Source of the DNA: Victivallaceae bacterium
GTDB taxonomy: Bacteria > Verrucomicrobiota > Lentisphaeria > Victivallales > Victivallaceae
Assembly: GCA_045532825.1 (NCBI GenBank)
Contig: JAZSGR010000087.1
Location: forward strand, 206-64,205
Direction: 5' to 3'
Length of the DNA stretch: 64,000 nt
Shown: positions 23,119 through 27,932 of the stretch, in pieces
Layout: the number at the start of each line of letters is the position of its first letter
Position numbering within the stretch: position 1 is the stretch's first letter
The notes under the pieces: generated by a model
The model's database searches: none
Told to the model about the DNA's origin: nothing
Seen by the model: the letters and a program-made list of their open reading frames with translations, nothing else
Translations under genes and position numbers: made by a program

Positions 23119-24060
23119 TCAGAAAAAATACCTTATTATCGCATTTTTCCTCAACCGTTTTGTATATTCGACTCTGCTGCTGTGCCGCTGCTCAGCCTCA
23201 AGCTGTCTGCGGATCTCCGGAATACTTTCGCGGTAGGAGACCTGCGCAGGCGGGACATACTGCAGAACTTTCAGAAAAACGACACCATCCGGAGTTTCCA
23301 GCGGACCGTATATTTTATCCTTTTCAGGAGTCACCAGTGCTTTGGCAAACTCCGGACGCAGCAGACGGCATTCGATCCTGCCGAGTCTGCCGCCCTCCTC
23401 ACTGCCCGGACCGGATGACCACTTGCGTGCAAGTTCAGCAAAGCGTGCCGGATCTTTTTTCAACTCTTTTGCAATCATCCCCGCCCTGCTCTTACCGGCA
23501 GCATCCAGCAGGATCATGGCAAGTTCAACACTGCCGGAACCCTGCTTTTTCACAATTTTTTCCTTGTAAAAACTGTACATTTTTTCCGGAGTCACAGAAC
23601 GCACCGCCATGTATTCACGGTGCAGCATCAACTGTACGATCATCGTTTCGCGGACATGTTTCCTCACTTCATCAATACTGCTGCCCTGACGGCGCAGACT
23701 CTGTTCAAATCCGGCACGCGAACGGATGCCCATGCGTTCAGCGATCTCATCGACTGCATTTTCGATATCGCGTTCGGGAATTTTGAAACTCTGTCCGGCA
23801 TAATCTTCAATGATGAGTTTACGGTCGATGAGATCATCCACCGCTTTCCGCCGTATGTCAAGTATCTGCTTTTCCAGTTCAGCTCCGGAACTGCTGTTGC
23901 GGGCGCGGAACTCTTTATCGCGGGTGACGGCAAGAACATCCTGCAAACTCACCGGCACACCGTTGACCGATGCCAGAATGGAGTTCAATTCTCCGCGTTT
24001 TTCAGCACCGCTGCAGAAAACCGCTGCCGCAAGTGCAAGTATCATAATCAATTTTTTCAT
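23119..24060 (-). CDS. SurA/PrsA-like periplasmic chaperone with PpiC-type (parvulin) peptidyl-prolyl isomerase domain
   Basis: 313 aa. The signal peptide is MKKLIMILALAAAVFCSGA. A SurA-N-like region (ASVNGVPVSLQDV) is followed by a parvulin-like segment (GGRLGRIECRLLRPEFAKAL...GPLETPDGVVFLKV). Confidence 0.7.
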   Translation of the reverse strand: MKKLIMILALAAAVFCSGAEKRGELNSILASVNGVPVSLQDVLAVTRDKEFRARNSSSGAELEKQILDIRRKAVDDLIDRKLIIEDYAGQSFKIPERDIENAVDEIAERMGIRSRAGFEQSLRRQGSSIDEVRKHVRETMIVQLMLHREYMAVRSVTPEKMYSFYKEKIVKKQGSGSVELAMILLDAAGKSRAGMIAKELKKDPARFAELARKWSSGPGSEEGGRLGRIECRLLRPEFAKALVTPEKDKIYGPLETPDGVVFLKVLQYVPPAQVSYRESIPEIRRQLEAEQRHSSRVEYTKRLRKNAIIRYFF

Positions 24061-24123
24061 CTGCCGTATCCATATGATAGATATGTTCCGGGGTTAATAT
24101 AAGCTGTCATCATGTTAAATGCA

Positions 24124-24161
24124 AATACAGAGGTACGACCGGGATGTTGTATCTCTGTATT
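24124..24161 (-). terminator. Hairpin terminator candidate after the MarC-like gene
   Basis: AATACAGAG (24124-24132) pairs with CTCTGTATT (24153-24161). On the minus strand it is followed by TGCATTT, so the U-tract is weak. Confidence 0.35.
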
Positions 24162-24206
24162 TTAATGTCGATCCGGCAGATATCCAGTGGGAACGGAAGA
24201 GCTTTG

Positions 24207-24803
24207 CTATATTCTTTTTATGATGAAAATATCGATCACAGCGGGAAGCAGATAATACATTCCCAGCAGAAACGACCAAAGTGATACAGATATTTGCATC
24301 GCAAGTTCCGGTACTTTACAACGGGTATGAGCTGTACAGTCAAGAGTGATCTGCATCACCAGAAAATTAAACAGCAATGCTGCAGTCAGGTTCACCAAAA
24401 CGCAAACAAGCGGCCGTTGACCGGCACTGAGCATCAGTACACCCAATACTCCCGGTCCGCATATAAAGGGAAAAGCGACAGGTACAACCGGATACAAAAA
24501 ACGGCAGTTTCCGAAAGATCCGCACAACCTGAAATCCGGTTTCAAACAGGAACATAACAGAAAAGCACTCCCCGTAAAAATTTTCATCCATCCGATCGGA
24601 AACGTTTTTTCATCAGAAACCCAATTGCGGAAACAAAAAACGGCGATCAAACATATAAACCATGCCCATAATGATCCGTTGACACACAACATTTTCACAG
24701 TGTTCCTGCCGGAAAAGCGGCACAACACTGAGACAAGCAAAGCCTTTCCGAGCGGATTGACCGCTATTGTCAATGTGATAAAATCACTGAGAACGTCATT
24801 CAT
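24207..24803 (-). CDS. MarC-family (UPF0056) integral membrane protein candidate
   Basis: The start is set at the ATG at 24803 (MNDVLSDFITLTIAVNPLGKALL), which overlaps the upstream stop as ATGAATGA. NPLG near the N-terminus and FICGPGVLGVLML resemble MarC motifs. The protein is unusually Cys-rich. Confidence 0.5.
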   Translation of the reverse strand: MNDVLSDFITLTIAVNPLGKALLVSVLCRFSGRNTVKMLCVNGSLWAWFICLIAVFCFRNWVSDEKTFPIGWMKIFTGSAFLLCSCLKPDFRLCGSFGNCRFLYPVVPVAFPFICGPGVLGVLMLSAGQRPLVCVLVNLTAALLFNFLVMQITLDCTAHTRCKVPELAMQISVSLWSFLLGMYYLLPAVIDIFIIKRI

Positions 24804-26769
24804 TTGCAAAAATTTCCTCAGGCTTGAAAACTGCTGCTCCAAAATTTTCAGAATGTTTTTTCACAATTCTTCTTCCGGATCTGTAAACATAGAAAAATCC
24901 ATTACCGGAATCTTCCGTACCAAAAATAATCTCGTGACAAAACTCCGGTTTCTGCCGTTTTATCAGCCAATCAGCCTTTGCCCGGTCAACGCTCTCCAAC
25001 CGGCAGAGGCGGAATTTTTTATTCGCGGTAAAATAAAAACATTCACCATTGCGCGGAATATCGTTACTTCTGGATCGCGTACTTATGAGCGGCAGGATCT
25101 GATCGCCAAGTTTCAGCATCGGAAATGGCTTTTCCAGAAAAACGATACCGGATTTTTCAACATCCGGTCGGATCTCCGAATGGATAGCCACGACCCATTC
25201 GAGATATCTCTGCTGCAAGTCAGTATTATTGAACCGGTCGTGCGCGGTATCCGGATCCAAAAGATCACGCCCCAACAGAAAATGATAATTGTGTTTGACT
25301 TTCAATGCGTGCAGAATTGTCGGAGCTATATCATAAGTTCTTCCCGGTACCGCAATTTTTTCTGCGGGATATTCCGGGGCATTTATCAGAAACAGCATCT
25401 TACGCTCTGTTTTCTGCAATTTACGGAGAATTATCCGGGGAGTATAATGATGCGAAAGATGATCGCCCTGTATAACAATAACAGTGTTGGCGCCGGCCGG
25501 GGACTCACGGATCTTTCTTACCAATTTTCCCAAAGCCGTATCCATGTTGTAAAATGCGTGGAGCAGATGCGGTGTTTCACGTTCATTCCATTTGTAAAAC
25601 TTTTTATCAGCATCGCATGCTCCATCCGGAGCATGTGTGTCAACCGTCAATACAGTAAGAGAAAACGGTTGCCGGTTTTCTGACAGTTTCCTGAACTGTT
25701 CCCATGCCTTTTCAAAAACGACAGCATCCCGGAGAGCATTTTCATATTTCAAATTGTGCGCCTGTCTGCTCTGCACATTATTGAGCATCACAACATTATA
25801 GTGTTCTCTCTCAAAGAAGGCATTAAAATGGTCGTAAGAAGTATTATGCCCATAAAGGAAATACTGTTTATAACCGGCTTTATGCAGTATTTCAGGCATA
25901 GTCCCCAGCCGTTTACCTGCCAGAAGATCAAATCCTTTTTTCATATGGAGCGGTGTGAGATTTATTCCGGTCAGAGAGGCAAAAATGCCGCCGAAAGTCA
26001 AAGTGGCGTTCGGGGCCATCCTGATATCAGTAAAAAGAATCGACTCCCCGCTGATTTTCTGCAGAGAGGGAAGCAAGCCGGGGAACTCCCTGTTATCCAG
26101 GAAATTTTTTTCCGCACTTTCCAGGATAATGTGTACGAGATTGCAGCCGGGAACAGCTTCGATCATATCCCGGTTTTCAAATATACCTGTCAATCCATGT
26201 TTCTGTATCACGTCAGGAGCATAAACGATCACCATTCTATCAAATACACGTTCAAGAAGCTCCCGGTGGGTCAGAAACGGCAGACAAAATACACAGGAGA
26301 CGGCTGCCACCAAAAGCACAACACCATTCCACAACGGTTTGAAACGATATCCGGGAATTGTGTTCCCGGCCGTCAATGGCAGCAGTATCATAAATATCAA
26401 CAGAGCAGCAAATACGGCAGCAGCAGGCAATTTATGATATACGAACAGATTTTTCAAACTGCCGACAGAAAGCAACTGGAAAAATTCTATGGTGAATGAC
26501 TTGTTCAGCATAATATCGAATACGATCAGAGCGACCAACAGCAGACAGACTGAAAAATTGAAAAGGCTCAATATCAGAATATTCCACCAACGCCCACCAT
26601 ATAAACGGAAAGCTGTCCAGTTTACACCCCAAAATGCAGCCATGCTTATGGATGCATACACCCAGGGTGTCATAAATGTAGAATAAAAGAAGTAATAAAT
26701 CGTTGATCCAAACAATAAATATCCAAGCAAAATCAAACACGGCAAATCATTTTTTTTCGTAAAATCCAT
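24796..26769 (-). CDS. LTA-synthase/phosphoglycerol-transferase-like membrane sulfatase-fold enzyme
   Basis: About 5 N-terminal TM segments followed by an alkaline-phosphatase-superfamily domain (VHIILESAEKNF, TFGGIFASLTG, LTVDTHAPDG, VIVIQGDHLSH). The start was chosen at the ATG at 26769 (MDFTKKNDLP) with GAAAGG upstream. The TTG at 26832 and the ATG at 26796 are alternatives. Confidence 0.75.
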   Translation of the reverse strand: MDFTKKNDLPCLILLGYLLFGSTIYYFFYSTFMTPWVYASISMAAFWGVNWTAFRLYGGRWWNILILSLFNFSVCLLLVALIVFDIMLNKSFTIEFFQLLSVGSLKNLFVYHKLPAAAVFAALLIFMILLPLTAGNTIPGYRFKPLWNGVVLLVAAVSCVFCLPFLTHRELLERVFDRMVIVYAPDVIQKHGLTGIFENRDMIEAVPGCNLVHIILESAEKNFLDNREFPGLLPSLQKISGESILFTDIRMAPNATLTFGGIFASLTGINLTPLHMKKGFDLLAGKRLGTMPEILHKAGYKQYFLYGHNTSYDHFNAFFEREHYNVVMLNNVQSRQAHNLKYENALRDAVVFEKAWEQFRKLSENRQPFSLTVLTVDTHAPDGACDADKKFYKWNERETPHLLHAFYNMDTALGKLVRKIRESPAGANTVIVIQGDHLSHHYTPRIILRKLQKTERKMLFLINAPEYPAEKIAVPGRTYDIAPTILHALKVKHNYHFLLGRDLLDPDTAHDRFNNTDLQQRYLEWVVAIHSEIRPDVEKSGIVFLEKPFPMLKLGDQILPLISTRSRSNDIPRNGECFYFTANKKFRLCRLESVDRAKADWLIKRQKPEFCHEIIFGTEDSGNGFFYVYRSGRRIVKKHSENFGAAVFKPEEIFANE

Positions 26770-26947
26770 AAAGCGGCCTTTCTGCACCACGATCATGCAT
26801 ATTTTGAACTTTTTGGTGTTCTCCGGAACCAAAAAAGCCGTATGGAGTTTATAAAATTTGTATAAATGCCTGCAGACGATTCTTCCCGGAATTTCCCTAA
26901 CGATGTTTTTATCTCAGGCAATTACCGCTGAAACAAAAAACGGACGC

Positions 26948-27106
26948 TTCAGCGTACCATGCCAGTAGGTCCGACCAAGAACCTGTCTCACGCGCACATC
27001 GAAGCATCCGTTTGTGTATGGATACAATCCATCCGGGTACACTTCACCTATGCGTGAGACAAATACGGCATATTAACTTGGTCGGTTTACTGGCATATTT
27101 GCTGAA
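26948..27106 (+). ncRNA. Candidate structured RNA (rod-like nested hairpin, 6S-RNA-like architecture); identity and strand uncertain
   Basis: Four nested helices. TTCAGC 26948-53 pairs with GCTGAA 27101-06. ATGCCAGTA 26959-67 pairs with TACTGGCAT 27088-96. CCGACCAAG 26971-79 pairs with CTTGGTCGG 27077-85. TGTCTCACGC 26984-93 pairs with GCGTGAGACA 27052-61. That gives 34 Watson-Crick bp. The core holds an ATGGAT/ATCCAT hairpin (27018-27032) and unpaired stretches on both sides. The GG (26968-69) opposite TT (27086-87) can form G-U pairs only on the plus strand. The element lies in a ~600-nt non-coding gap. Confidence 0.4.
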
Positions 27107-27443
27107 ATTCGAGGTAATCTCAAAACTCCTTCAAAAAAATAAAAACAGATGCACTTTCATATTTTTTGAAGAGTCTTAAAACTGCCTCGTACACTATTTG
27201 ATTGTCAATGAGCACCGGATGTCGGTGCTTAAAATATATCACACCCCTATCAAAAATACAATAACAAAAAAATATCAAGTCATGATATTTGTACGCACAC
27301 ACAAAAAAATTCCGAATTGCAAAAGCTGGCTATTGCGAATAAAGTTGCTTAAATGTAATTAAAAACTTGATTTTTTGCGGTTTTGAATGTATCTTTGCCA
27401 GTGGATAAAAAAACATGCACCGGAATTGCCGGAAAGGAAACTT

Positions 27444-27932
27444 ATGAAACGCAATTTTTTCAGACGCAGCTGCATAAAGCTGTACTCAAAAATAGTGAAG
27501 GAAAAAGCAGAGCCGGAATACATCGCCCGGGGCTGGGCGATCGGCATGTTCTACGGTTGTCTGATACCATTCGGTTTCCAGCTCATCTGTTCGATCCCCA
27601 CCGCGTTCATCCTCAAAGGCAGCAAGATCGGAGCCACGGTGGGAACTCTCATCACCAATCATTTCACCGTTTTCATCATTTATCCTGCGCAATGCTACGT
27701 CGGCTATCTTCTCATGGGCAGATGCCGCAGCATGGCTGAACTCAAACAGATCATGAACACTGTTATCAGTGAACAGAGCTATGAAACTCTTTTCAGCTTC
27801 GGACTGGAACTGGTCGCGGCATTTTTTATCGGCGGAGCACTGCTCACTGCGATAATGACTCCGATCACCTATTTTCTGGTCAAAAAACTTGCAGTCAATT
27901 ACCGTAACAGAAAAACCAAAAAAGTACAGTAA
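27444..27932 (+). CDS. DUF2062-like small membrane protein
   Basis: The start is set at MKRNFFRR (27444). The EPEYIARGWAIGMFYGCLIPFGFQLICSIPTAFILKGSKIGATVGTLITN pattern resembles DUF2062. Confidence 0.55.
   Translation: MKRNFFRRSCIKLYSKIVKEKAEPEYIARGWAIGMFYGCLIPFGFQLICSIPTAFILKGSKIGATVGTLITNHFTVFIIYPAQCYVGYLLMGRCRSMAELKQIMNTVISEQSYETLFSFGLELVAAFFIGGALLTAIMTPITYFLVKKLAVNYRNRKTKKVQ

Follow-up and report, generated by a model that had tools for sequence, protein, structure and literature searches.

A nested inverted repeat at positions 26948-27106 of a 64,000-nucleotide (nt) stretch of DNA from a Victivallaceae bacterium (contig JAZSGR010000087.1; the whole stretch is called the window here) is very likely the rod domain of a structured RNA whose genes form a new family in the order Victivallales. 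The family unit measures roughly 230-300 nt. It has well over 100 non-redundant members, and its covariation is as strong as that of established RNA classes. To our knowledge no regulatory RNA has been characterised in the Victivallales, which are common in the rumen and gut and almost unstudied, and we found no description of this RNA family in the literature.

Folding, homologues and covariation of the hairpin

The four-helix nested hairpin that an initial annotation had read from the letters of the window is present at 26948-27106, where the helices surround a 58-nt core with an ATGGAT/ATCCAT hairpin. In plus-strand letters the four helices are as follows:

26948-53 with 27101-06: outer helix, TTCAGC / GCTGAA
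26959-67 with 27088-96: second helix, ATGCCAGT(A) / (T)ACTGGCAT
26971-79 with 27077-85: third helix, CCGACCAAG / CTTGGTCGG
26984-93 with 27052-61: fourth helix, TGTCTCACGC / GCGTGAGACA

The fold energy was -66.3 kcal/mol on the plus strand (z -7.26) and -70.4 kcal/mol on the minus strand (z -6.37), a z score of about -7 on both strands, and none of 200 shuffles reached the native value.

BLAST revealed homologues of the hairpin in 16 of 36 congeners, and further ones in a second family of the order. Up to 7 of them occurred in a single genome, on either strand. A pattern scan of species-representative genomes, based on the invariant blocks CCGACCAAGARCC and ACTTGGTCGG separated by 85-115 nt, returned at least 119 family loci. 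Nearly all of these were in metagenome-assembled genomes (MAGs) labelled Lentisphaerae, Lentisphaeria, Victivallales or Victivallaceae, and the carrier MAGs came from rumen, colon and faeces.

In the family alignment, near-invariant blocks alternate with two hypervariable helices, P2 and P4, whose sequences are wholly different between members while the pairing is always kept. RNAalifold, applied to 20 sequences, reported 18 pairs with compensatory double changes. We then counted covariation over a 64-sequence alignment of the whole unit (A4) and a structure of 56 pairs. Standard pairs were found in 89.9% of cells, compared to 79.3% in shuffles, and double changes in 409 cells, compared to 129 ± 9. 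The covariation score was 0.358 as opposed to 0.173 in shuffles, and every slid register scored 0.092 or less. The helices differed in how they varied. P3, a 9-bp helix (CCGACCAAG/CUUGGUCGG) that served as pattern in the scan with at least 119 loci, was identical in sequence in all 64 aligned members. In 85 non-redundant copies of the 8-bp hypervariable helix P2, positions 2-7 formed Watson-Crick pairs in 96-100% of cases, with almost no wobble. The hypervariable P4, which averages about 10 bp, had compensatory changes at all pairs.

Across more than 100 homologues the compensatory covariation is massive, and its pattern excludes coding potential within the rod. The hairpin is no chance palindrome. 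The extent first given to the element, 26948-27106, holds for the rod domain. The unit is larger than 159 nt and also comprises a promoter, a 5' hairpin, a tail and a U-run.

Transcribed strand and promoter

The RNA is probably transcribed from the minus strand of the window; we assign this strand because of a conserved promoter, the wobble statistics and the position of the U-run. Paralogues of one genome could be aligned between a plus-strand A-run and a conserved box that lies about 65-90 nt away from the rod, on its right. In minus-strand letters, this box is a sigma-70-type promoter with TTGnnn, a spacer of 16-17 nt and TATATT. A promoter score of at least 9 of 13 was obtained in 78 of 117 loci on the minus strand. 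On the plus strand, that region reached the score in 3 loci, and shuffles gave 4.65. TATATT was the commonest -10 box (56 loci). The A-run becomes a U-run on the minus strand and directly follows the closing helices.

The wobble pairs have the same polarity. Over the 56 pairs, 89.9% of cells are paired in the minus-strand reading and 77.5% in the plus-strand reading. G-U pairs make up 12-29% of P1, P4, P5 and P6 on the minus strand as compared to 1-4% on the other (85 against 34 wobble pairs in P4), and many columns of the 64-sequence alignment switch between U-A and U-G or between G-C and G-U when read on the minus strand.

The plus strand had been preferred at first on account of two G-T oppositions. 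These oppositions are invariant, but the wobble statistics of the family and the promoter favour the minus strand, and transcription from the plus strand is overturned. AGG at 26967-69, opposite TTT at 27086-88, is invariant in the family and forms a conserved AA/CC mismatch on the minus strand.

Anatomy of the unit and a competing hairpin

In the sense of the RNA, the unit consists of the promoter, a 5' hairpin, a single-stranded block, P1, P2, the AA/CC mismatch, P3, a bulge, P4, an internal loop, P5 and P6. Alignments of paralogues and of allele groups place its borders just upstream of the -35 box and shortly past the U-run. The 5' hairpin is present in every member, each time with a different sequence, and the conserved single-stranded block reads GGCUAAUUGAMAACCG-UUAUA. 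P1, which is the outermost helix of the initial annotation, pairs UUUCAGCA with UGCU(U)GGGA and contains 28.6% G-U pairs. The bulge between P3 and P4 is 15 nt long (UAAAAAnnnUAUUUG), and the internal loop above P4 measures about 13x12 nt (UAGGUGAAAUGUA / GCUUCUUUGCAU). P5 (UCCGG / CCGGA) and the apical P6 covary with many G-U pairs. At the 3' end of the rod, GCGUU-CGG-UUUUUUU, the CGG plus U's can pair with AAAACCG to form a further helix, P0. The rod is unbranched and is closed by P0/P1. Its wobble-free P2-P3 duplex, together with the conserved loops, has the look of a surface that a protein or RNA polymerase would recognise, and the invariant 9-bp helix resembles a recognition site for macromolecules.

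The 3' strand of P1 has a second potential partner. Together with CGUUCGG it can pair with sequence just beyond the U-run, which then forms the loop, and this pairing excludes P1. The competing hairpin was significant (z below -2) in 59% of 83 copies. In the window, the competing partner GCTGAA at 26927-32 that had been proposed for TTCAGC at 26948-53 is indeed present, and the switch-like alternative pairing seen there has its equivalent in this conserved hairpin.

We infer a role for the U-run as a terminator. Canonical intrinsic terminators were not enriched after the rod (20/72 in the RNA sense compared to 17/72 antisense). An extra conserved 3' module, GCUGGAUUUCG-CAGC-GAAA-GUUG-GGAAAUC, which is a GNRA-capped hairpin following the competing hairpin, was seen in 16 of 72 copies (for example L056, L064 and L120) and suggests that these members, at least, are transcribed past the U-run. 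One subfamily extends about 80 nt to a weak hairpin and then to a U-rich tract.

The copy in the window and its MITE

The window copy is interrupted by a miniature inverted-repeat transposable element (MITE) with terminal inverted repeats (TIRs). By comparison with intact members, we placed the promoter and the 5' module of this copy beyond the MITE. The features are on the minus strand except for the MITE, which is given no strand:

26922..27261: whole RNA gene unit (promoter, 5' module, MITE, rod, U-run, competing arm)
26922-27160: match to model R1 of the family, 130.7 bits, E 5.7e-30
27256..27261: -35 box TTGTAT, weak (3/6 matches to TTGACA), at the site of the family-conserved promoter
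27233..27238: -10 box TATATT, 17 nt from the -35 box; transcription is predicted to start near 27226
27211..27229: 5' hairpin AGCACCG-acauc-CGGUGCU, whose sequence differs between family members
27190..27210: what is left of the single-stranded block conserved on the 5' side, UCAUUGACAAUCAAAUAGUGUA (consensus of the family, GGCUAAUUGACAACCGUUAUA), from alignments
27111..27188: MITE of 78 bp, TIRs GAGGTAATCTCAAAAC / GTCTTAAAACTGCCTC, inserted inside the transcribed region
27101..27107: 5' strand of P1, UUUCAGC (invariant block AUUUCAGCAAAU), partner 26947-26953 (GCUGAAG)
27089..27096: 5' strand of P2, AUGCCAGU, partner 26959-26966
27077..27085: 5' strand of P3, CCGACCAAG, partner 26971-26979 (CUUGGUCGG)
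27052..27061: 5' strand of P4, partner 26984-26993
26994..27051: core with the large internal loop (UAGGUGAAGUGUA / GCUUCGAUGUGCG), P5 and the apical hairpin P6; loop sequences conserved
26931..26940: U-run UUUUUUGUUU, directly after the closing helices and nearly invariant in the family
26926..26932: arm X of the competing hairpin, UUCAGCG, partner 26948-26954 (CGCUGAA); present in the minimum free energy fold of the window copy

The MITE lies between the 5' module (27190-27229) and P1, a point at which intact family members are continuous. The R1 score of the window copy was 130.7 bits as compared to 160-230 in typical members, and the first 45 positions of the model align to MITE sequence at low posterior probability only. 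The promoter boxes match 8 of 12 consensus positions, and a strict scanner makes no call there. The predicted transcript of 304 nt folds at -118.3 kcal/mol (z -8.3); in this fold the rod is kept, the MITE forms a separate hairpin and the competing 3' hairpin is formed. With its weak promoter, the split by the MITE and the loss of P0, the window copy is probably impaired.

The genome of the window (2.96 Mb in 228 contigs, 84% complete) contains the hairpin once. For the MITE family, BLAST gave about 40 matches in this genome and a pattern search 54 ends. All of the roughly 40 BLAST matches fall in the 40 nt immediately to the right of the hairpin, and the dispersed repeat is thus a separate, adjoining element. 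Its TIRs are GAGGYAATTTCAAAA / TTTTGAAATTRCCTC; short forms are about 80 bp and long forms about 170 bp, and the cores differ. The idea that the hairpin is itself a MITE, which the initial annotation had kept as an alternative, is ruled out by the single copy, the absence of TIRs and target-site duplications (TSDs), and the covariation. What remains of it is that a real MITE splits the unit, and that the annotation had not separated the two.

No obvious target duplication was seen at the MITE at 27111-27188. Weak miRNA-like Rfam matches near the hairpin correspond to the MITE hairpin. A MITE of the same family was also seen within the RNA unit of L110 (Lentisphaeria bacterium UBA5247), about 31 nt after CTTGGTCGG, as an independent insertion about 9 nt from the insertion point in the window; this was the only other case among the 119 loci listed. 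A preference of the MITE for the AU-rich single-stranded block as its target may explain the repeated insertion.

Distribution across genomes

Of 116 high-quality genomes sampled from the order, 62 contained the RNA according to model R1. They represent 23 of 45 genera and have 1-8 copies each. In a sample of the phylum the RNA was concentrated in two families (16/24 and 10/14 genomes), and the other families gave sporadic matches or weak matches to the rod only (model positions 60-197). No matches were found in 2.9 million viral contigs or in a plasmid collection, and carriage by phages or plasmids was rejected on this basis.

Two distant relatives were observed, L059 in a MAG labelled Bacteroidetes (nzgw121) and L099 in a MAG labelled Bacteroidales. 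Both keep P2, the junction, the invariant P3 and P4, and their cores and flanks differ. Possibly the rod is a module that predates the full unit; alternatively, contigs of the L059/L099 type may be mis-binned.

Comparison with known RNA classes

Rfam was searched on both strands with 4227 families. The hairpin had no match at E up to 10 (26700-27500), the window had none at gathering thresholds, and 8 intact family members had none at E up to 1. The search of all families including 6S RNA (RF00013) that had been suggested for the hairpin therefore gave no assignment for the window or for intact members.

The 6S-like character first proposed for the structure holds for its shape, with a closing rod, a bubble of about 13x12 nt and a terminal stem. 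It does not extend to family membership: RF00013 had no match in the genome of the window, and the distribution of the RNA is patchy at 0-8 copies. Membership in 6S is ruled out by the covariance model and by this distribution (62/116 genomes, up to 8 copies). Canonical 6S (RF00013) was itself seen in 0 of 81 genomes of the order, 78 of them of high quality, at E up to 0.01. The Victivallales 6S RNA is either very divergent or replaced.

Omega RNAs (TnpB/IscB), IS110 bridge RNAs and retron non-coding RNAs were rejected because there is no conserved neighbouring open reading frame (ORF). The genome of the window contains one reverse transcriptase fragment only, on another contig. Y RNA/YrlA was rejected because this genome, 84% complete, has no match to TROVE (Ro60, PF05731).

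Genomic context and polarity

No protein gene was linked to the RNA, the best real neighbour cluster covering 8 of the 119 loci among the matches listed. Upstream, no ORF ends at the RNA as is the case with omega RNAs, and downstream there is no conserved small ORF.

The two sides of the RNA nevertheless differ. The next ORF on the 3' side was co-oriented with the RNA in 77 of 97 loci, and the next one on the promoter side in 62 of 107. Accessory or unannotated genes lie 3' of the RNA and include AIDA-type adhesins, TibC and other glycosyltransferases, Sel1/TPR, TerD, caspase-like and WYL proteins. The promoter side, in contrast, has ordinary genes that are well annotated (75 proteins with 63 Pfam families). 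In 39 of 44 loci, the 2 kb of sequence 3' of the RNA were richer in AT than the 2 kb next to the promoter, with a GC content of 0.451 as compared to 0.516. The usual place of the RNA is in front of AT-rich accessory gene blocks.

The window shows the same arrangement. As initially described, the hairpin lies between a divergent gene pair:

24796..26832, minus strand: gene for a sulfatase-domain membrane protein (LTA-synthase-like), co-oriented with the RNA and downstream of it, in the AT-rich, lineage-specific block
27387-27932, plus strand: DUF2062 gene, the other partner of the divergent pair

The AT-rich setting was also borne out, as the hairpin locus is the local GC minimum (0.377 at 26800-27399). 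An AT-richer block was observed at about 23800-27700 (GC 0.41-0.46 compared to 0.50-0.55 in the flanks); besides the RNA, it holds the sulfatase-domain gene and a MarC-like ORF. The RNA stands at the right edge of this block and points inward, about 100 nt upstream of the sulfatase-domain gene. In 29 congeners the DUF2062 orthologues have neither the RNA nor a sulfatase-like gene beside them, and we therefore regard the block as lineage-specific. Synteny is poor in the clade as a whole: none of the 29 congeners keeps the gene order of the window around DUF2062.

The possibility that the variable stems serve as local address codes was rejected, since matches to P4 10-mers were as rare as expected (1 observed, 1.1 expected).

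Proposed function and alternatives

The reading that we favour, and hold tentatively, is that the unit is a cis-acting promoter-plus-leader cassette that gates transcription into AT-rich accessory gene blocks. We prefer it because of the co-orientation on the 3' side (77/97), the AT-richer 3' side, the accessory nature of the 3' genes, the competing hairpin and the lack of enrichment of terminators. In such a cassette, closure of the rod by P1 plus P0 beside the U-run would stop transcription and release an RNA of about 230 nt. If the 5' strand of P1 were instead kept unavailable, by a factor on the invariant P3 and the loops or by RNA polymerase, read-through would follow. The 3' strand of P1 would then be captured by the segment past the U-run, the competing hairpin would lock the open form, and in this form the downstream accessory genes would be transcribed. 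The start and end of the transcript, its read-through and any partner of the RNA are predictions. Should the unit control transcription into acquired genes in this way, it would be a new RNA-based means of expressing foreign AT-rich DNA.

Known systems offer partial parallels. The put RNA of HK022, the EAR (eps-associated) RNA and terminator/antiterminator attenuators are likewise structured RNAs that head surface-polysaccharide or adhesin-type operons, long or horizontally acquired; they are co-oriented with the genes that follow and share the logic of termination versus read-through proposed here. In contrast to these, the present RNA has no sequence or structure homology to them (no Rfam match), is much larger than put, includes its own conserved promoter within the unit and has its alternative hairpin after the U-run.

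Several observations weigh against a gating leader. Its trigger, whatever keeps P1 open, is hypothetical. The competing arm is located after the U-run and cannot by itself prevent termination. P0 is short, with 3 G-C pairs plus A-U pairs, and the window copy lacks its CCG partner. In 21% of copies no co-oriented ORF (>=100 aa) comes next, and the median distance from the U-run to the next start codon, 221 nt, is long for a leader. Among 55 downstream proteins there are 30 unrelated Pfam families, and no pathway is common to them. The AT-richness of the 3' side has a Wilcoxon p of 6e-7, a value that is overstated since the loci are phylogenetically related. Finally, among copies with near-identical variable stems, neither neighbour was common to the two in 55 of 66 pairs, and different genes follow them.

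The main rival, which we consider possible but doubtful, is a free-standing, trans-acting rod RNA of about 230 nt that ends at the U-run and binds RNA polymerase, as 6S RNA and mycobacterial Ms1 do, or a P3-specific partner; the paralogues would then be isoforms. Such an RNA would account for the conserved promoter of its own, for homology that ends soon after the RNA and for the failure of any gene family to be linked to it, and its wobble-free P2-P3 duplex could act as a DNA mimic or as the target of a duplex-binding protein. It resembles 6S and Ms1: all are about 200 nt long and have 5' and 3' parts that pair into a long interrupted closing stem, a large internal bubble, a terminal stem-loop and their own promoter. 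No canonical 6S was detected in the order (0/81 genomes, and none in the genome of the window). If the RNA does act in trans, it would be a candidate for the missing 6S/Ms1-type regulator where no 6S is detectable. However, it has no match to the covariance model RF00013, and an accessory RNA present in 62 of 116 genomes at 0-8 copies differs from the near-universal 6S and is unlike a housekeeping regulator of RNA polymerase. It also differs from 6S and Ms1 in its invariant 9-bp helix and its extensive conserved loop sequence. Its orientation into AT-rich accessory DNA and the competing hairpin past the U-run, which are likewise foreign to 6S and Ms1, are left unexplained, and the sole copy in the genome of the window is interrupted. 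Whether a cis-acting leader or a trans-acting RNA is preferred, the RNA merits a family entry.

In a further reading, which we regard as unlikely, the unit would be a new class of self-contained promoter-plus-RNA cassette that licenses the transcription of AT-rich, horizontally acquired genes in Victivallales, with the folded rod acting by way of its invariant P3 helix and loops on the transcribing RNA polymerase or on a silencing or termination factor. The cassette would be an RNA-only counterpart of processive antitermination of the RfaH/LoaP or put type, and its hypervariable, wobble-free helices could prevent recombination or cross-folding among paralogous cassettes.

It is improbable that the unit is a riboswitch-like sensor in which the rod is an aptamer with a ligand-stabilised P1, and the U-run and competing hairpin are the expression platform for many unrelated accessory genes. 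Second-messenger riboswitches control unrelated genes in this way, and those for cyclic di-GMP (c-di-GMP) are known to precede diverse surface genes, such as adhesin or glycosyltransferase genes, with several copies in one genome. The c-di-GMP-I/II classes resemble the present RNA in their several copies per genome, in covarying helices around conserved loops, in a P1 strand common to an alternative structure, and in the adhesin and glycosyltransferase genes downstream; the concentration of conserved nucleotides in internal loops between covarying helices, the alternative pairing of the P1 3' strand and the multiple copies upstream of diverse surface, adhesin or glycosyltransferase genes would all fit a sensor. 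Yet the RNA matches no riboswitch family in Rfam, and a rod of about 200 nt, unbranched and with an invariant 9-bp duplex, suggests macromolecular rather than small-ligand recognition. The gap to the start codons is long, and the gene context has no functional theme indicating a ligand.

A mobile or recombination-related element, be it a non-autonomous cassette, a guide or bridge-type RNA of a distant recombinase, or an integration hotspot of islands, seems equally remote. It would fit the near-identical variable stems in unrelated contexts (55/66 pairs), the patchy multi-copy distribution with an occasional strong match outside the two main families and in Bacteroidetes-labelled MAGs, and the position of the unit at borders between core-like and AT-rich DNA, and the near absence of wobble in P2-P3 would suit a hairpin at the DNA level. 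Like MITE and REPIN repeats, the family is extragenic, forms hairpins and has several dispersed copies in some genomes. Its copies are not near-identical, however, and their helix sequences wholly differ while the pairing is kept; the RNA has a promoter and only one copy in the genome of the window, where the genuine MITE behaves otherwise, with 54 ends and conserved TIRs. Alignments of paralogues and of allele groups revealed no TIR or TSD at the borders of the unit, and there is no array structure. No transposase, integrase, reverse transcriptase, TnpB or IS110 gene is linked to the RNA (130 neighbours included a single integrase), nothing in the vicinity matches the variable stems, and viral contigs and plasmids carry no matches. 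The G-U-rich helices point to selection at the level of RNA, and since synteny is poor in the clade anyway, changed neighbours need not mean mobility.

Other features of the flanking sequences

A sub-threshold match to Acido-Lenti-1 was observed at L032:1858-1903 (+), with 25.8 bits as compared to a gathering score of 37 (E 0.038). The distance to a family member, on whose promoter side it lies, is about 110 nt. In the flanks of L035 and L120, tandem (GCTT)n / (GCAA)n repeats occur within a few hundred nt of family members.

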